Part shown: one piece after another, positions 1,577 through 13,027 of the stretch | Position numbering within the stretch: position 1 is the first letter of the stretch | How the letters are laid out: every line of letters begins with the position of its first letter | NCBI GenBank assembly: GCA_013114725.1 | Contig: QCWD01000005.1 | Coordinates: forward strand, 1,672-25,671 | Source of the DNA: Nitrososphaeraceae archaeon | Lineage (GTDB): Archaea; Thermoproteota; Nitrososphaeria; Nitrososphaerales; Nitrososphaeraceae | Direction: 5' to 3' | DNA: 24,000 nucleotides | Position numbers and translations under genes: made by a program | Notes under the pieces: generated by a model | Databases searched by the model: none | Told to the model about the DNA's origin: nothing | The model's input: the letters and a program-made list of their open reading frames with translations, nothing else

Positions 1577-3067
1577 ATGGTTGATTCAGAAGTAACTCTT
1601 AACAACATTGAAGTTACAATTTTAAAAAATCTTGATATTACTACTCCTGTAGGATTTGATGAACTAATAAAATCAACATCTCTTGGTTTGGACCAGATTC
1701 GTAGAGGAGTTGAATGGTTAAAATATAAAGAATTGATAGTGGTGGATGATAAAACTGAATTTTTTTATGAATTAGATTCCAATGGAATCTATTCGTTATA
1801 TAACGGATTGCCTGAAAGACGATTGATTAATTCAATATTAGATGGTAAAAAAAATATTTCTGAAGTATTATCTGACAAAAAAATTGGCCCATCAGAAATC
1901 AATATTGCTATTGCAAAAGCAAAATTAAACGGATGGATTAAATTGGAAACAAATGGGCAGTTTGAAATAATTCATCATAATAAAAGCATCCAAAGTGATG
2001 AAGAGATTTTAATTAATAAAATCAATAAATATAAAATCCCAAAAAATGAATTGTCTAATTTAGATTTAATCACATTAAAAAAATTATTAAAAAGACCAAA
2101 ATTTATTAAAGAAGTTGAGGAAAAAATCTTTTTCTACACAATTTCAGAAAAGGGATTAGATTTATTAAAAGAAAATGAAGATATACCAAAAGAATCAAAA
2201 CTCACTGTAGAATTACTTTCTACTGGCAACTGGAAAAATGTTTCGTTTTCAAAATTAGACGTCCAAGCTCCAGTTCCTATCTCCTATCCTGGAAAGAAAC
2301 ATCCATTGACTGATCTGATAGATGAGATACGTCATGCATTTATCAGTCTTGGATTTACAGAAATCGAAGGAGATTTAGTGCAATCATCTTTTTGGAATTT
2401 TGATGCATTGTTCACACCACAAGACCATGCTGCTAGAGAAATGCAAGATACTTTCTATATCCAAAATTTAGTTGAAACTGAAAATCCTGATTCAACACTC
2501 ATCCAAAATGTTTCCCAATCTCATAAATTAGGATGGAACTATGAATGGAAAATTGAAGATTCAAGAAGATCGGTATTGAGGACTCATACTACTCCAGTGA
2601 CGTTAAAGTATCTTTCTGACGTTAAACCTGATGAAGCCAAAATTTTTACCATTGGTAGAGTATTTCGTAACGAGAAAGTATCATATAAACACTTAGTAGA
2701 GTTTAATCAAATTGAGGGAATTGTTACTGGAAAGGATGTGACCTTACGTGATCTAATGGGGATACAAAAAGAATTTTACTCTAAGTTGGGAATTAAAAAA
2801 ATAATGTTCTGGCCAACTTTTTTTCCATATACCGAACCTTCACTTCAAACTATGATTTATAATGATAATTTAGAAAAATGGGTCGAATTATTTGGAATGG
2901 GAATTTTCAGGCCAGAAGTTACAAAACCATTAAACATTCCTAATCCAGTTCTAGCTTGGGGAGGAGGGATAGAACGAATTGCCATGTTAAGATATGGATT
3001 AAACGATGTTAGAGATTTATATACAAATGATATGAATTGGCTAAGGAATTTAACAAAATGCCTGTAG
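1577..3067 (+). CDS. pheS: phenylalanyl-tRNA synthetase alpha subunit (archaeal type with N-terminal winged-helix repeats)
   Basis: 496-aa ORF with class II motifs: RTHTTPV, GRVFRNE (motif 2 region), and GGGIERIAMLRYG (motif 3). It is immediately followed by, and overlaps, the beta subunit gene. Confidence 0.95.
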   Translation: MVDSEVTLNNIEVTILKNLDITTPVGFDELIKSTSLGLDQIRRGVEWLKYKELIVVDDKTEFFYELDSNGIYSLYNGLPERRLINSILDGKKNISEVLSDKKIGPSEINIAIAKAKLNGWIKLETNGQFEIIHHNKSIQSDEEILINKINKYKIPKNELSNLDLITLKKLLKRPKFIKEVEEKIFFYTISEKGLDLLKENEDIPKESKLTVELLSTGNWKNVSFSKLDVQAPVPISYPGKKHPLTDLIDEIRHAFISLGFTEIEGDLVQSSFWNFDALFTPQDHAAREMQDTFYIQNLVETENPDSTLIQNVSQSHKLGWNYEWKIEDSRRSVLRTHTTPVTLKYLSDVKPDEAKIFTIGRVFRNEKVSYKHLVEFNQIEGIVTGKDVTLRDLMGIQKEFYSKLGIKKIMFWPTFFPYTEPSLQTMIYNDNLEKWVELFGMGIFRPEVTKPLNIPNPVLAWGGGIERIAMLRYGLNDVRDLYTNDMNWLRNLTKCL

Positions 3068-4725
3068 TAAATATTTCTAAATCCCATTTCAAAGAGTTAC
3101 TTGAAGGTTATTCTATAGAACAAATAATCGACATTTTACCATATATATCACTAGACATAGAAGGAGAGGATGACAGAGAAATTCGCATCGAATATAATCC
3201 CAACAGACCAGATTTTGCAAACGAATTCGGAATAATAAGGGCTCTTAACGGTATTTTAAATATTCAAAAAGGAATTCCAAAATTTGAGACTATTGAAAAT
3301 GGAGATAGAACCATGTCGATTATAATTGATTCTTCTGTTATTCCAATCAGACCTGTTATTCTGGGTATTTGTGCCTATGGAAAATGGGATATTACTTTAG
3401 AATTAGCTAAACAAATAATTTCCACTCAAGAAGATCTCCATAACGGAATCGGACGTGGACGCAACAAAGCATCTATTGGCATACATGATCTTGATAAATT
3501 AAAATTTCCTATCTATTATACAACTCTTGATAGTAAAGAAAAATTCATTCCACTTGATGAGAAATTATTATTTAGATTTGATCAAGTTCTGGAAAAACTC
3601 GAGGTAGGAAAGAAATACAGGCATATTTTAAAATCTGATCACATAAAAAATTTCAGATGTCCTGTTTTGATCGACAGTTTGGAAAGAATAATTTCATTTC
3701 CTCCTATTATAAACAGTGATTTTAGCAAAATTGAAAAAACTACAAGAAATTTGTTTGTGGAGATAACTGCATCAAACCAAGATACTGCAATCAATATGTT
3801 ATCAATAATGGCTTATTTTCTTTTTGATGCAGGATTTTCTATAAAACCCATTTTTATCCATGACCAAAACAATATTTTTTCATCCACTTCTGTTATCCAA
3901 AACTTTACTCTCAAATTGAATTTAAGCTCCGTAAACAAAATTTTGGGGCTGAACCTAAATGTTAAACAAATAGAAGAATGCTTAAACAAAAGCAGAATCG
4001 GAACTAAAATTCTTGATGATAATACTATCTTGTGTGAAATACCTGCATATCGTGTAGACATAAAAAACGAGATAGATTTAGTAGAAGAAGTGATCATTGG
4101 TTTTGGAATCTTAAACTTAAAACCAAACATAGCATCTTTTCAATCAGGAAAGTTCCACCCATTTCATATCTATCTAAGTTTTTTCAGAGAACTTTTGATT
4201 GGTTTTGGTTTTCAAGAGGTAGTAAATTTCAACCTAATTAATGAAAATGTACAATACGATCAAATGAACATTATGCATCCAGTAAATATAATCAGGGTGG
4301 AAAAGCCAAAAAGTAGTGGACATGAAATATTGCGAGATTCACTAATTCCTTCTTTGCTAAACAATCTCTCTCATAACGTTCATGAAGAATATCCACAAAA
4401 AATATTTGAAATAGGGAAATCATTTAGACTGGAAGATAAGCGTATAGTTGAAAATTGGAATTTAGGCATAATGGTCTCTCATAAGAATACAGGATATACA
4501 GAATTAAAATCCATTCTTCAATATATAATGAAAATAAAGCAAAACAAACAAATTGTCACAAAATCAGATACAAATTCAATATATATTGATGGTAGATGTG
4601 CTTCTATTATTTTAGATGGATGTGTGATAGGGCATTTAGGTGAGATTCATCCACAAATAATAAACAATTTCTCAATTAGAATCCCAGTTACTGCAATTGA
4701 GATTAACCTATCACTGCTTTTTTAA
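3058..4725 (+). CDS. pheT: phenylalanyl-tRNA synthetase beta subunit (archaeal type)
   Basis: The ORF track opens at 3037 (MAKEFNKMPVV...). I prefer the ATG at 3058 (MPVVNISKSHF...), the usual archaeal PheT N-terminus, which overlaps the pheS stop (3065-3067) by 10 nt. B3/4 and B5 domain-like regions are present (YNPNRPDFANEFGIIRAL, IPAYRVDIKNEIDLVEEV). Position directly after pheS supports the call. Confidence 0.92.
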   Translation: MPVVNISKSHFKELLEGYSIEQIIDILPYISLDIEGEDDREIRIEYNPNRPDFANEFGIIRALNGILNIQKGIPKFETIENGDRTMSIIIDSSVIPIRPVILGICAYGKWDITLELAKQIISTQEDLHNGIGRGRNKASIGIHDLDKLKFPIYYTTLDSKEKFIPLDEKLLFRFDQVLEKLEVGKKYRHILKSDHIKNFRCPVLIDSLERIISFPPIINSDFSKIEKTTRNLFVEITASNQDTAINMLSIMAYFLFDAGFSIKPIFIHDQNNIFSSTSVIQNFTLKLNLSSVNKILGLNLNVKQIEECLNKSRIGTKILDDNTILCEIPAYRVDIKNEIDLVEEVIIGFGILNLKPNIASFQSGKFHPFHIYLSFFRELLIGFGFQEVVNFNLINENVQYDQMNIMHPVNIIRVEKPKSSGHEILRDSLIPSLLNNLSHNVHEEYPQKIFEIGKSFRLEDKRIVENWNLGIMVSHKNTGYTELKSILQYIMKIKQNKQIVTKSDTNSIYIDGRCASIILDGCVIGHLGEIHPQIINNFSIRIPVTAIEINLSLLF

Positions 4726-4903
4726 AAATTTAAAGTACTTTTATATTTGTATTAGTGTTAAAAAAAGTGCCAAAAGCAAAAATATTTTGGTAACCCCGTT
4801 AAGAGAGTGCACTAGGAGAAGTACACTTGAGTGTATGGCTATCAATGAATACGTGTGGGTCAGAGGCGGGGGACAATTATTGATACATATATAAAACTAA
4901 ACA

Positions 4904-5092
4904 CTATTGAGTCAAGTCAGATATGCTATTTTTGATTATGAATTTAGCCTCCCTTGAAATATTATATTTATCCAGGATTCTTTGATCTTTTATAAGACTA
5001 TTTCTAAAATCCGGTTCACTTGCAGCTTTAAGGAGAATTTCGCTTATAACTTCGGCATCCTTTTGTTTGGAAACCAATTTATACAGTATCAA
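4904..5092 (-). CDS. small hypothetical protein with NHLP-like (nitrile hydratase leader peptide-like) helical domain; candidate YcaO-TfuA substrate or partner
   Basis: 62-codon open frame in a stop-rich, AT-rich background. The segment KAASEPDFRNSLIKDQRILDKY aligns position by position with the NHLP core pattern KAWxDPxFKxxLLxNPKxxLxxE. There is no ATG, and the only canonical start is TTG at 5092. It is divergent from ycaO across a 72-nt TATA-rich spacer. No Gly-Gly cleavage motif and no obvious core peptide. Confidence 0.5.
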   Translation of the reverse strand: MILYKLVSKQKDAEVISEILLKAASEPDFRNSLIKDQRILDKYNISREAKFIIKNSISDLTQ

Positions 5093-5164
5093 CGTTTGAT
5101 GTATATAAATTTATTGTATATTTCGTAAACTTGATATGAACAATGAATATCTTTTAAACCTAAA
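5093..5164. promoter_or_regulatory. divergent promoter region between the NHLP-like ORF and ycaO
   Basis: The 72-nt spacer contains TATATAAA (5102-5109, which reads TTTATATA on the minus strand) and GTATATTT (5116-5123, AAATATAC on minus). These are archaeal TATA-like elements, placed about 25-60 nt from the TTG at 5092 and the GTG at 5165. No experimental support. Confidence 0.3.
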
Positions 5165-6475
5165 GTGATACTCAAAAGCAGATTAAAGTGGTCATCCGAA
5201 GGGACATCTAGAACAATACCTGTTGATAAAACTCTTACTAAAATTTCAAAACTTGTCGATAAAATAGGTGTAACAAGATTGGCCGATATTACATATATGG
5301 ATAGATTATTTATTCCAAATTATTCTTCAGTATTGCCTGGTACGGATGACTATATTTGGGTATATAGTGGAAAAGGAGCAACAAAAAAACATGCTAAGGC
5401 AAGTGCTTTGATGGAAAGCATAGAACGTTATTCCTCACTACCTAATTTTTACCTCGGTGATTTTATTCAAGGAAGTCATAAAGATTTATCATCGAAATAT
5501 AAAATACTTCACCCTTACCAAGTAGTCGAGCCATTAAATTTTGATTACAATGATGAAATGATTATGGACTATCTATTAGGCTATGATATACAAAATAAGG
5601 ATGAAATTTTGGTCCCTGCCGCGTTGGCATTATTTAGATATCATCCAAATTCTCCCGCAATAAATCCATTTGCTGTTCACCATACCAATGGTTTGGCATC
5701 TGGAAATGTATTAGAAGAAGCAGTTTGTCATTCTCTCTGTGAAGTTATTGAAAGAGATGCGATTAGTTTGGCACAATTACGTGCTAGTGCAATTCCATAT
5801 CATTTTCTAGTACATATTTCGGAAAACTTGGCAATAAATGGTTATTCCATAAATGGAAACTCAATTAAGGACAGTTTTTTTGACGACAATGCTATTTTTC
5901 CTGACATTGATCTTGATAGCATCGATTTTCTGCCAGCAAATAAATTAATCGATAAATTCCAAACTGAAAATATTTCTTTATTTATCAAGGACATTACCTC
6001 AGACATAGGGATACCGACTTTTATTGCAACCTCCGTAGAATGGATTTCTCATGATTACGGGTATTTGGCAGAAGGACACGGGACCCATCCGGATAAGAGA
6101 ATTGCCTTGCTACGTTCAATTACCGAGGTATCTCAAACGAGAGCAGCTAATATTCAAGGTGCTAGAGACGACCTCAGAAAAATTCGATATAGTGATGGCA
6201 ATAATGAAGATAAAAGATCATGGCAATTTACTCCATCAACAAAAATAATCAATTTCTCGGATATTCCTAGTTATTATCAAGTAGATATTTTGGATGATAT
6301 TAATTTGATATTACAGAATCTCAAACGAAGTGGATTAAATCAAGTTATTGTAGTTAATTTAACAAATCCTAATTTGGACATACCTGTTGTTAGGACAATA
6401 GTTCCCGGACTCGAAACTTTTAAATTTTTAAAATCGGTTATAGGTCCAAGAGCAAAGGCGTATTTTAAAAAATGA
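5165..6475 (+). CDS. ycaO: YcaO-family protein (ATP-dependent peptide backbone amide activation; TfuA-associated type)
   Basis: 436-aa ORF with a GTG start (a stop codon at 5144-5146 closes the frame upstream). It has the two signature YcaO ATP/Mg motifs ALMESIERYSS and SLCEVIERDA, plus HHTNGLASGN. It lacks the C-terminal PxPxP of azoline-forming YcaOs. Its stop overlaps the tfuA start (ATGA at 6472-6475). Confidence 0.93.
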   Translation: MILKSRLKWSSEGTSRTIPVDKTLTKISKLVDKIGVTRLADITYMDRLFIPNYSSVLPGTDDYIWVYSGKGATKKHAKASALMESIERYSSLPNFYLGDFIQGSHKDLSSKYKILHPYQVVEPLNFDYNDEMIMDYLLGYDIQNKDEILVPAALALFRYHPNSPAINPFAVHHTNGLASGNVLEEAVCHSLCEVIERDAISLAQLRASAIPYHFLVHISENLAINGYSINGNSIKDSFFDDNAIFPDIDLDSIDFLPANKLIDKFQTENISLFIKDITSDIGIPTFIATSVEWISHDYGYLAEGHGTHPDKRIALLRSITEVSQTRAANIQGARDDLRKIRYSDGNNEDKRSWQFTPSTKIINFSDIPSYYQVDILDDINLILQNLKRSGLNQVIVVNLTNPNLDIPVVRTIVPGLETFKFLKSVIGPRAKAYFKK

Positions 6476-7140
6476 CTAAACCAATAATTTTTTTAGGACC
6501 AAGTTTAAGTCATAAAAAAGCCAAACAAATTTTAGATGCAGATTATAGATTTCCAGCTAAAAAGGGAGATCTGTTAAACCTATTAACATTAACCAGTACA
6601 GAGAAAATACAAATCGGTTTGGTCGATGCGGTATTCTTACAGGATTATCCTCCAACACCAATTGAGGTTTACCAATTAGTGGCTAGAAGTAATCAATTTC
6701 AAGTTTTCGGTGCTTCGAGCCTAGGTGCATTAAGAGCTGTCGAACTAGAAAAATACGGCATGATAGGAATTGGTAAAATATTTGATTTTTATAAAAGAAA
6801 TATTATAGATGCTGATGATGAAATTGCAGTAACTTTTGACCAATATCAAAATAATCTTATCTCCGAAGCCTTGATTGATATACGATATAATCTTTTTCTT
6901 GCGTATAAACATGGTATAATTAACAAAGAAGTTAAAAGGAATATGATAAAAATTGCTAAAAAGATTTATTTTCCTTATCGAACATATGATAACATTATTA
7001 ATAAAACATTAGAAAAATATCCTTCGTGTTTTGAACAAATAAATTTGTTTAGATCTTTTATCATTCACAATAGAAGGAGTCTCAAAGAAAGAGATGCTAT
7101 TGAACTGTTACGTTATCTTAAAACTTCTATACAAAAATAA
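6472..7140 (+). CDS. tfuA: TfuA-like protein (YcaO partner for thioamidation)
   Basis: 222-aa ORF starting MTKPIIFLGPSLSHKKAKQIL...FPAKKGDLLNLL. This matches the TfuA N-terminal hallmark (xFLGPSL ... P.xxGDL). The 4-nt ATGA overlap with ycaO indicates translational coupling. Confidence 0.9.
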   Translation: MTKPIIFLGPSLSHKKAKQILDADYRFPAKKGDLLNLLTLTSTEKIQIGLVDAVFLQDYPPTPIEVYQLVARSNQFQVFGASSLGALRAVELEKYGMIGIGKIFDFYKRNIIDADDEIAVTFDQYQNNLISEALIDIRYNLFLAYKHGIINKEVKRNMIKIAKKIYFPYRTYDNIINKTLEKYPSCFEQINLFRSFIIHNRRSLKERDAIELLRYLKTSIQK

Positions 7141-11323: not shown

Positions 11324-11449
11324 ACGATTATCGACGTTAATTATTCTGTGTATTAAATCTTCAAGTCTTTAAAGTTGAAATCATATCTGATTTGATTGCT
11401 TGCAAACAATTTATATTTGATCTATTGTCGAAACATCATTGTAGTTTTA

Positions 11450-13027
11450 ATGGTAATTTCTGGAAAAAGAATTGTATTAACTGCAGATAGAAGTTTGATG
11501 ACTAACTACAGAGGAAATTTTTTATATGGTTTTATTGCATGCGGTCCGTACGAATTAGTTCCTGAATTTGTTTTTGATAAACTTTTTTGTCCAAGTGTTG
11601 AAACCGATAAAAGGACTGGAGAAGTTAAAGTTGCTCAATGTGGGTTAAGAAGAATAGAAGGAGCACTTTTACAAGAATATAACAAAAATGATATTTTTAT
11701 TGCTCATCCTGAGATGCTTGAAAAATGTATAGGTCCAGATACAAAAGTTGTTGGAATAAATGTAATGGATCCTTTAGGAATGGCACCTGTAACAACAACC
11801 ATGTCACCTGAAAAACTATCTTATGTTGCGATGAAATTCAAAAAGATGTGTGCTTCAATTATTCAATTAAAGAAAAAATACAATTTTAAAGTGGTTGTAG
11901 GAGGAAATGGTTCTTGGGAACTAGCTAAACCTGACCGTATGCGTATTCATGGAATTGATACTGTTGTGATAGGCGAAGCAGATGAACTAGCGCTTGACTT
12001 ATTTCATGACCTTGAGGCAGGGGATGCACCAGAATTACTTCATACGTTTGTTCGTAATATAGAAAATATACCAATGATAAATGGTCCTACGATAAATTCA
12101 CTAATTGAGGCAATGAGAGGTTGTGGGAGAGGTTGTGATTTTTGTGATGTAAATAAGCGTTCTAAAAAAGATATTCCATTATCTCGTTTGCAGGAAGAAG
12201 CAAAAATAAATCTTAATTATGGGTTTGATTCCATTTGGTTACAATCTGATGAAATGCTGCTTTACGGTTGTGATAATAAAGATTTTGTACCAAATAAAGA
12301 CGCAATAATAGATCTATGGACTGGCTTAAAATCAGTCGGTGCCAATTTTGTAGGAACTACACACATGACACTGTCTGCAGTAGCTTCATCTCCCGATCTG
12401 ATTAAAAAATTATCACAGATTAATGATATGGAAAATAATGGTAGATGGCTCGCTACCAATCTGGGAGTCGAAACAGTAGCTCCTCGAATGGTAAAGAAAC
12501 ACTTGGGTGTAAAAACAAAACCGTTTCAGCCAGAAGAGTGGGGTTCGGTAGTTAGGGAGGGATGTAAAATCTTGAATGCAAATCATTGGTTTCCAGCTCT
12601 AACATTAATTATTGGGTGGCCAGATGAAACGCCTGATGAAACACAATATACAATAGACCTTATAGAAGATTTCAGACAAATGAATATGAGAGGACTAGTT
12701 GCACCTCTATTATATCAAGATTTTTCAGAAAAAAATTCAATGCATTTTGGTAATCTTAATGAGGCACAATTTACTTTATTTTGGAAATGCTGGCAACATA
12801 ATCTTCATATAATCAATGATATAATCCCCATTATTATTAGAAACAAAACATACGGTCCGGCAATGAAAATGTTTATGGCTGGACTAATCAAGGTTGGGAC
12901 ATGGGCGATAATGAAATATCTTCGAGGATTATCAAAAGAACTATTCAACGGACGAATACCTGAAGACATTGTAGATAAATACGCAAGGAAGAGATCTGTT
13001 ACATTAACTCCCTCTCCAAAACTTTAA
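11450..13027 (+). CDS. radical SAM enzyme with N-terminal B12-binding-like (Rossmann) domain, COG1032-type; substrate unknown
   Basis: CX3CX2C cluster motif in AMRGCGRGCDFCDV. An upstream Rossmann-like segment is present (KVVVGGNGSWE...IDTVVIGEADE), along with GWPDETPDE, typical of this family. The ORF track starts at TTG 11396. I prefer ATG 11450 (MVISGKRIVLTADRS...), because the 18 codons before it look like spacer. Confidence 0.88.
   Translation: MVISGKRIVLTADRSLMTNYRGNFLYGFIACGPYELVPEFVFDKLFCPSVETDKRTGEVKVAQCGLRRIEGALLQEYNKNDIFIAHPEMLEKCIGPDTKVVGINVMDPLGMAPVTTTMSPEKLSYVAMKFKKMCASIIQLKKKYNFKVVVGGNGSWELAKPDRMRIHGIDTVVIGEADELALDLFHDLEAGDAPELLHTFVRNIENIPMINGPTINSLIEAMRGCGRGCDFCDVNKRSKKDIPLSRLQEEAKINLNYGFDSIWLQSDEMLLYGCDNKDFVPNKDAIIDLWTGLKSVGANFVGTTHMTLSAVASSPDLIKKLSQINDMENNGRWLATNLGVETVAPRMVKKHLGVKTKPFQPEEWGSVVREGCKILNANHWFPALTLIIGWPDETPDETQYTIDLIEDFRQMNMRGLVAPLLYQDFSEKNSMHFGNLNEAQFTLFWKCWQHNLHIINDIIPIIIRNKTYGPAMKMFMAGLIKVGTWAIMKYLRGLSKELFNGRIPEDIVDKYARKRSVTLTPSPKL

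Follow-up and report, generated by a model that had tools for sequence, protein, structure and literature searches.

The 24,000-nucleotide stretch of Nitrososphaeraceae DNA analyzed here (referred to as the window; GenBank contig QCWD01000005.1) encodes a YcaO-TfuA enzyme pair next to a small, divergently transcribed open reading frame (ORF). Most likely, the locus is a module of three genes conserved in terrestrial and thermophilic ammonia-oxidizing archaea (AOA), in which the product of the small ORF would serve as a substrate or partner of backbone thioamidation. The enzyme part of this module is real and already known, because the AOA pair had been noted in 2017 and 2021 without a known substrate (PMC5589413, PMC8120280). 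The new part is the small ORF, which to judge from its sequence encodes an unannotated mini-protein that travels with ycaO-tfuA and is related to the nitrile hydratase leader peptide (NHLP) family, whose members feed YcaO enzymes. A leader-only mini-protein of the NHLP clan attached to the ycaO-tfuA genes of AOA was not found described in the searchable literature. AOA are, to our knowledge, devoid of methyl-coenzyme M reductase (MCR). Why such organisms keep McrA-type thioamidation enzymes is a question standing since 2017; the finding overturns nothing established and reduces the substrate part of this question to one construct, composed of a 57-amino acid protein and two enzymes. The features of the locus, in window positions, are the following.

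4904-5092, minus strand: small ORF, 62 amino acids when read from the TTG at 5092 as in the ORF list
5093-5164, no strand: divergent spacer, 72 nt between the small ORF and ycaO
5165-6475, plus strand: ycaO, 436 amino acids from a GTG start (PF02624)
6472-7140, plus strand: tfuA, 222 amino acids (PF07812)

The mini-protein gene and its linkage to ycaO-tfuA

Checked against the ORF list and the sequence, the three ORFs, their coordinates, the enzyme motifs, and the ATGA in which the ycaO stop and the tfuA start overlap at 6472-6475 (ATG 6472-6474, TGA 6473-6475) are as a first-pass annotation, made by a model from the letters, had described them. That annotation also proposed a 62-codon ORF transcribed divergently from a 72-nt TATA-rich spacer, of which the layout stands but the length probably does not. 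The product is probably a protein of 57 amino acids (MVSKQKDAEV...DLTQ) starting from an alternative in-frame TTG at 5077, because orthologous gene calls in the databases are 57-58 amino acids long and this codon lies ~25 nt from a TATA element; its mRNA is possibly leaderless. Substitutions among orthologues number 1443, 1112, and 3484 at the first, second, and third codon positions, respectively, and 52% of the differing codons are synonymous. Because the substitutions concentrate at third positions, the small ORF is, by this pattern, a real coding gene under purifying selection, which spans its whole length. A profile search of 5.8 billion proteins retrieved 735 family members, all labeled "hypothetical protein" and none with a Pfam domain, and every named member belongs to Nitrososphaeraceae. 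The gene is vertically inherited, highly conserved, and housekeeping-like.

The relationship to NHLP precursors, which had been claimed at first pass, emerges from family profiles and not from the curated models. A plain NHLP precursor was rejected as the identity of the small ORF, with no Pfam or NCBIfam match at E ≤ 10, and family members score 12.5-20.5 bits against TIGR03793 (cut-off 50.9), outside this precursor family. An exhaustive search of 1.84 billion representatives with the family profile, however, yielded 113 matches, the distant ones including tandem-NHLP precursors that carry ELSDEEL..AGG sites and Cys/Gly-rich cores. NF038399, the Os1348 NHLP-clan family, was matched by 76 of 81 distant relatives and TIGR03793 by 54 of 81; the peptide models TIGR03795 and TIGR04351 for thiazole/oxazole-modified microcins (TOMM) were also among the families matched. 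Alignment of the family with ten bacterial tandem-NHLP precursors by hhalign gave a probability of 97.3% (E=1.8e-11) over residues 13-50, and a search of the PDB with the family profile retrieved nitrile hydratase alpha (3e-5) and a chain named "NHLP leader peptide family natural product" (6e-4).

This homology is confined to the N-terminal helices. The AOA protein has an N-terminal helical segment in common with the NHLP precursors (TIGR03793) and the Os1348 family, and the motif A-x-x-(D/E)-P-x-F-(R/K) within it is common to the small ORF and the NHLP precursors. Unlike the bacterial precursors, the AOA protein has neither the YLVLP strand, nor the Gly-Gly or ELSDEEL..AGG cleavage site, nor a core, and it stays under every curated cut-off; it is vertically inherited and highly conserved, whereas NHLP precursors are variable. 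Because the homology covers the N-terminal helices only, without strand, cleavage site, or core, the small protein is, on profile evidence, a remote, truncated, leader-only homologue of the NHLP leader domain and not a TIGR03793 precursor. Since core peptide and cleavage site are both missing, it is not a conventional NHLP precursor of a peptide synthesized by the ribosome and modified after translation (RiPP). Bacterial NHLP-type peptides are known YcaO substrates, and their genes frequently neighbor those of YcaO (TOMM) enzymes.

Given the family alignment, AlphaFold2 confidently predicts a four-helix mini-protein with a pLDDT (predicted local distance difference test) of 88. Its C-terminal tail, S-I-x-D-L-T-Q, is near-invariant within Nitrososphaeraceae and is modeled with lower confidence. 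Foldseek comparison of this model with the PDB gave nothing significant (best E=1.7, the LigA-like domain of gallate dioxygenase), a result that is uninformative because the protein is too small and helical. Two other identities were considered and set aside. A ThiS/MoaD-like sulfur carrier was rejected, the protein being all-helical, without a C-terminal Gly-Gly, and in most members without Cys; a DNA-binding regulator was deemed unlikely, with no match to helix-turn-helix or ribbon-helix-helix models and a near-neutral charge.

Linkage was counted in species-representative genomes, in which the window YcaO matched 60 loci, all of Nitrososphaeraceae/Nitrososphaerales or Nitrosocaldus ammonia oxidizers (best 82% identical); the retrieval patterns are biased towards close relatives of the window YcaO. 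Four loci lack upstream sequence and are uninformative, which leaves 56. By tblastn and a hidden Markov model of the family, the small ORF was found in 29 of the 60 loci, at 43-89% identity and in each case on the opposite strand from ycaO. It is immediately divergent from ycaO in 29 of the 56 informative loci, and the distance from its conserved core to ycaO is a steady 94-125 nt in 29 loci. In five informative loci, all Nitrosocaldus, it lies 1.05-1.65 kb upstream of ycaO, one gene away, and in 22 it was not found within 6 kb of ycaO. On the YcaO tree, one monophyletic "Nitrososphaera sp." clade (GC 0.40-0.51) and the lineage of loci L048 and L050 account for these 22 absences, L050 being one of the four loci without upstream sequence. 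Small-ORF subfamilies that are mutually only 30-40% identical, when traced to their contigs, have kept the adjacency to ycaO-tfuA in different surroundings.

L061: small ORF adjoins ycaO-tfuA; HxlR on one side, ABC permeases on the other
L063-L066: small ORF adjoins ycaO-tfuA; pheT on one side, rhodanese and sulfite reductase on the other
L069/L070: small ORF adjoins ycaO-tfuA; LeuCD-like genes outside
L074/L075: small ORF adjoins ycaO-tfuA; MsrA and S8 peptidase outside

Overall, the left flank may be pheT with a probable non-coding RNA, HxlR, MsrA, LeuCD-like genes, or a 3.8-kb ORF-free insertion (L001), and the right flank L15e, rhodanese/sulfite reductase, ABC permeases, or a 190-amino acid ORF. 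Because the small ORF is adjacent to ycaO in several outer contexts and unlinked in two groups, their junction is, as read from these comparisons, one that outlasted several rearrangements on both sides, yet is not obligatory. The mini-protein thus accompanies ycaO-tfuA through much of terrestrial AOA evolution, and the conserved neighborhood asked for at first pass is found across rearranged flanks in most lineages sampled, but not in the Nitrososphaera clade or in a group where the gene faces TldD/PmbA.

Within the divergent spacer of the window, a TATA-like element occupies 5102-5109 (TATATAAA; minus strand, TTTATATA), and 5125-5141 is a further conserved block, GTAAACTTGATATGAAC. In an alignment of 15 spacers, ATATAA/TATATAA and a GTAAnCTTGATAWGAAC block (core TTGATAWGAAC) are kept in most loci, and both are weak or missing in the most divergent ones, L063 and L065. 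The shared spacer is compatible with a common regulatory region, presumably with promoter function.

Several observations concern individual loci. In L001, the closest relative of the window, ~3.8 kb without an ORF of at least 70 amino acids (1950-5740) is inserted between the conserved putative small RNA/pheT and the small ORF. This stretch is possibly decayed or non-coding DNA, and it leaves the junction of small ORF and ycaO intact. Four of the five Nitrosocaldus loci (L051, L052, L054, and L055; e.g., L052 4877-5875) carry an SBF/bile-acid:sodium symporter-family gene (PF01758) that separates the small ORF from ycaO and points the same way as ycaO-tfuA, with no match in L053; it is the sole transporter seen inside the module in any lineage. 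In L067/L068 and L072 (small ORF 5001-5174 and 5908-6075), a TldD/PmbA metalloprotease pair is divergent from the mini-protein gene, and the block is tandemly duplicated locally in L067/L068. A gene for a 226-amino acid protein and a BNR_2 gene follow the small ORF in this group, and the same two follow it in Nitrosocaldus. The leader of microcin B17, a RiPP made by a YcaO enzyme, is removed by the peptidase TldD/E; the TldD/PmbA genes beside the mini-protein may be a coincidence. Finally, in the Nitrososphaera clade, which has no adjoining small ORF, a 122-amino acid protein with a C-terminal CxxC...CxxC zinc ribbon and no Pfam match is encoded in the same direction as ycaO and ~260 nt upstream of it, at L014 5368-5736 (plus strand) and at the same position in 20 other loci. 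It is 63-95% identical over the 21 loci (80-95% except L046), and its gene is among the most conserved of the locus.

The YcaO and TfuA enzymes

The identities assigned to the two enzymes at first pass are borne out by model and structure matches. The window YcaO, which carries ASALMESIERYSS and HSLCEVIERDAISLA, belongs to the YcaO superfamily, with E=4.7e-70 and 236.9 bits against PF02624 (cut-off 25.7) and 195.9 bits against TIGR00702 (cut-off 75.65). Its acidic ATP/Mg motifs, ALMESIERYSS and LCEVIERDA, both align to Methanocaldococcus jannaschii MJ1094, the closest solved YcaO structure (6pe3, E=5.6e-37), relative to which the window protein has an insertion of ~35 residues between its two halves. 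The closest family is TIGR03266, the equivalog for McrA-glycine thioamidation; because the score of 276.9 bits is under the 365-bit cut-off, the window protein is not a member of this equivalog. Against NF040716, the E. coli-type YcaO subfamily, it scores only 41.5 bits. The product of the gene directly after ycaO, which starts MTKPIIFLGPSL...AKKGDLL, is, like the partners of thioamide-forming YcaOs, a TfuA protein (PF07812, E=5.4e-33, 113.7 bits, cut-off 30) that matches the solved TfuA 6xp8 over its full length (E=3.8e-27) and is not a McrA equivalog, with 201.5 bits against NF033432 (cut-off 235.2). On these matches, the window YcaO is an ATP-dependent backbone amide-activating enzyme nearest to, and not an equivalog within, the McrA-glycine-thioamidating clade.

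As the first-pass annotation had stated, the pair was previously noted in AOA without a known substrate. Nayak et al. reported in 2017 that AOA YcaOs fall in the methanogen YcaO clade and that AOA are non-MCR holders of ycaO-tfuA (PMC5589413). Malit et al. counted eight TfuA clusters in Thaumarchaeota in 2021 without proposing a precursor, and their published figure of a Nitrosocosmicus cluster shows only a "hypothetical protein" beside YcaO (PMC8120280). As of March 2026, McrA and bacterial uL16 were the only established thioamidated proteins, and TfuA was understood as a hydrolase that frees sulfide from a thiocarboxylated ThiS-like carrier (PMC13063428).

The nearest characterized relative is the YcaO-TfuA system of methanogens (M. 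acetivorans MA0165/MA0164; TIGR03266, NF033432), which has the same two enzymes, the same ycaO/tfuA stop/start overlap, and a YcaO of the same clade (PMC5589413), the source of both the best-matching models and the best solved structure; by analogy, the chemistry is presumably also shared, with sulfur replacing oxygen in a backbone amide at the expense of ATP. Unlike this system, the window pair resides in an AOA host that by lineage lacks MCR, stays under both equivalog cut-offs (277 bits where 365 are required, and 201.5 where 235.2 are), has the ~35-residue insertion in YcaO, and is joined by a conserved NHLP-like mini-protein gene, which was not found described in the methanogen literature consulted. 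E. coli YcaO, shown by Rice et al. (2026, PMC13063428) to modify uL16, acts on a folded housekeeping protein and not on a RiPP peptide, and indicates that unknown protein substrates exist; in the uL16 work, YcaO-substrate complexes were screened across the proteome by AlphaFold-type prediction. However, E. coli YcaO belongs to another YcaO subfamily and works without a TfuA, and the gene of its substrate lies elsewhere. In thioamitide/thioviridamide clusters the YcaO-TfuA pair is likewise found beside a small ORF, but these clusters combine a leader-and-core precursor with several tailoring enzymes and a protease, frequently also with transporters; the window has none of these.

Two observations concern genes of the enzymes themselves or directly beside them. 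A divergent YcaO (468 amino acids, ~56% identical), with no adjoining TfuA gene, is encoded at L048 5974-7380 and in L050, that is, in two Nitrososphaeraceae genomes; no small ORF was found beside it, L050 being without upstream sequence, and this YcaO is possibly a paralogue that serves another role. Genes for a sulfite reductase (NIR_SIR) and a rhodanese adjoin tfuA in convergent orientation in nine loci, which belong to two sister clades (L036, L037, L039-L041, L043, and L063-L065; e.g., L063 209-2889), and it is plausible that they provide a local sulfide or persulfide source for thioamidation. They are not in the window, and no sulfur-carrier or sulfur-donor gene was found in its 24 kb. 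The caution voiced at first pass, that sulfur-donor and transporter genes are lacking, therefore holds for the window itself, while relatives have the sulfite reductase and rhodanese or, in Nitrosocaldus, the SBF gene.

Proposed role and competing explanations

If the mini-protein is the target, YcaO would use ATP to phosphorylate or adenylate a backbone amide oxygen, as in the chemistry of characterized families, and a sulfide equivalent delivered via TfuA would attack the activated amide, so that one peptide bond becomes a thioamide. The sulfite reductase and rhodanese genes abutting tfuA in nine related loci would fit a local supply of sulfide. The likeliest site would be the conserved and flexible C-terminal tail (S-I-x-D-L-T-Q), and the modified mini-protein would stay intracellular instead of being cleaved and exported as a peptide natural product. 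The I-x-D-L-T-Q portion of this tail is faintly reminiscent of the McrA site G465-F-D-L-Q (PMC5589413), a weak lead of three residues that is not kept in other subfamilies. It is a matter of speculation that the thioamide gives the mini-protein a metal-handling role, e.g., for copper, in these copper-dependent hosts.

That the mini-protein is the dedicated substrate of YcaO-TfuA is put forward tentatively. It is favored as the target because an NHLP-clan gene beside a YcaO gene is the classical signature of precursor and enzyme, because the linkage of the small ORF to ycaO is conserved, and because its tail is near-invariant in Nitrososphaeraceae and modeled with lower confidence. The modification of folded proteins rather than peptides by YcaO enzymes has precedent in McrA and uL16 (PMC13063428). 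The wider proposition, that this leader-only mini-protein is the physiological thioamidation substrate of YcaO-TfuA in AOA, is possible though somewhat doubtful. It would bring the known thioamidated proteins to three, the newcomer being the only one from an aerobic archaeon, and would establish a new class with the NHLP leader itself as the modified end product. If true, backbone thioamidation would extend to abundant aerobic soil nitrifiers and to a third protein, and RiPP leader domains would have acquired a new evolutionary fate. If the mini-protein proves not to be modified, an unlinked protein substrate would be indicated.

A number of points weigh against the mini-protein as substrate. 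Linkage is the sole tie between it and the enzymes, and this tie is broken throughout the Nitrososphaera clade (21 loci), where the family is found beside a Na+/H+ exchanger gene instead (on high-GC Nitrososphaera-type contigs, 48% GC), and in the P0174 group, where the gene is divergent from TldD/PmbA and not from ycaO-tfuA. Part of the adjacency within Nitrososphaeraceae could also be inherited synteny with pheST. The enzyme belongs to a McrA-type clade that uses no leader peptides, and no RRE-like domain (RiPP recognition element) is evident. With respect to the protein itself, the window small ORF has no match to Pfam or NCBIfam at E ≤ 10, including TIGR03793, TIGR03795, and TIGR03798, and its relatives reach only 12-22 bits against TIGR03793 and NF038399 (cut-offs 50.9 and 40). 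It has no Gly-Gly site, no core peptide, and no hypervariable region, the sequence ending in ...SISDLTQ directly after the leader-homologous helices; the protein is predicted to be a compact helical bundle, and the C-terminal tail is not kept between subfamilies.

Several of these points speak for a different target. YcaO-TfuA may well thioamidate another cellular protein, as with McrA and uL16, leaving the small NHLP-like ORF as a conserved neighbor of unrelated function; this explanation is about as likely as that of the mini-protein as substrate. The nearest relatives of the enzymes act on a large folded enzyme without a leader (PMC5589413), the uL16 work argues that further protein substrates exist that are not encoded beside ycaO (PMC13063428), much of the adjacency falls inside a pheST-anchored syntenic block, and the small gene is still well conserved in the Nitrososphaera clade and the TldD/PmbA group, where the adjacency is lost. 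However, the adjacency survives a change of both outer flanks in at least five contexts and among subfamilies only 30-40% identical, an NHLP-clan homologue beside a YcaO gene is still the classical mark of precursor and enzyme, and the window yielded no alternative candidate. Less expected, and on balance unlikely, is an accessory role, in which the small protein either regulates the divergent operon or is an in-trans, leader-like adaptor that activates YcaO-TfuA or directs it to another protein. A protein made of leader-homologous helices without a core, with purifying selection over its whole length as in a folded binding protein, would suit such a role, as would the conserved intergenic region, since in conserved divergent pairs an operon is frequently linked with a regulator or a partner. 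Nevertheless, no precedent is known in which an NHLP domain on its own works in trans with a YcaO of the TfuA type, the protein is not particularly basic and lacks a recognizable DNA-binding domain, and the fold search gave nothing significant.

Two further explanations would assign the locus to established systems. In a canonical exported, thioamitide-like RiPP cluster, the small ORF would be a leader-plus-core precursor that is cleaved and secreted. Its NHLP-clan homology is in line with this, and mining of the antiSMASH type labels such loci as "TfuA-related BGC" (biosynthetic gene cluster; PMC8120280), but the protein ends right after the leader-homologous helices, without a double-glycine or other cleavage motif, a core, or a hypervariable C-terminus. 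Furthermore, no protease, transporter, or tailoring genes were found within the 24-kb window, and the gene is inherited and conserved in the manner of a housekeeping gene, which together make export very improbable. Slighter still, and practically negligible, is the chance of an ordinary McrA-thioglycine system, as found in methanogens or methanotrophs. The best NCBIfam matches of the two enzymes are indeed the McrA-thioamidation models TIGR03266 and NF033432, but both scores are under the equivalog cut-offs, no mcr genes were found in the 24-kb window, and the closest loci are, in 60 of 60 cases, from ammonia oxidizers of the Nitrososphaerales or Nitrosocaldales, non-MCR holders of ycaO-tfuA (PMC5589413).

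Surroundings of the module

The window has a GC content of ~30%, and the matches of its YcaO in the species-representative genomes identify the host as a low-GC Nitrososphaeraceae ammonia oxidizer. The thaumarchaeon-like origin suggested at first pass was thus correct, the family being Nitrososphaeraceae and not Nitrosopumilales. The remaining genes are archaeal housekeeping genes, encoding TrpRS, PheRS alpha and beta, L15e, a PGDH-like dehydrogenase, and tRNA-Ala, accompanied by genes for a radical-SAM protein, GluRS, isoprenoid-lipid synthesis, S2, and enolase. The radical-SAM protein (543 amino acids, 11396-13027, plus strand) is encoded ~4 kb from tfuA and weakly matches B12-binding radical-SAM families (TIGR04013, 50 bits). 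Genes for a geranylgeranyl diphosphate synthase, an isopentenyl phosphate kinase, and a mevalonate kinase are also present in the window, and the radical-SAM protein is probably lipid-related and not part of the ycaO-tfuA module.

The interval from the stop of pheT (4725) to that of the small ORF (4904) contains a GC-rich block of ~85 nt (4793-4876, plus strand), whose DNA is 80-89% identical in 32 related loci where the adjoining PheT protein is only ~45% identical. The block has sharp edges (RCCCCG...CGGGGKACA) and an invariant closing stem directly followed by ACA (AUA in some loci). It does not belong to the small-ORF unit; in L001 it stays with pheT, 3.8 kb from the small ORF. No Rfam family matched it at E ≤ 1, and no tRNA was called. 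Three pairs of the apical hairpin have compensatory changes, G-U pairs are valid on the plus strand only, and the block probably represents an unannotated structured small RNA, possibly an H/ACA-like guide.

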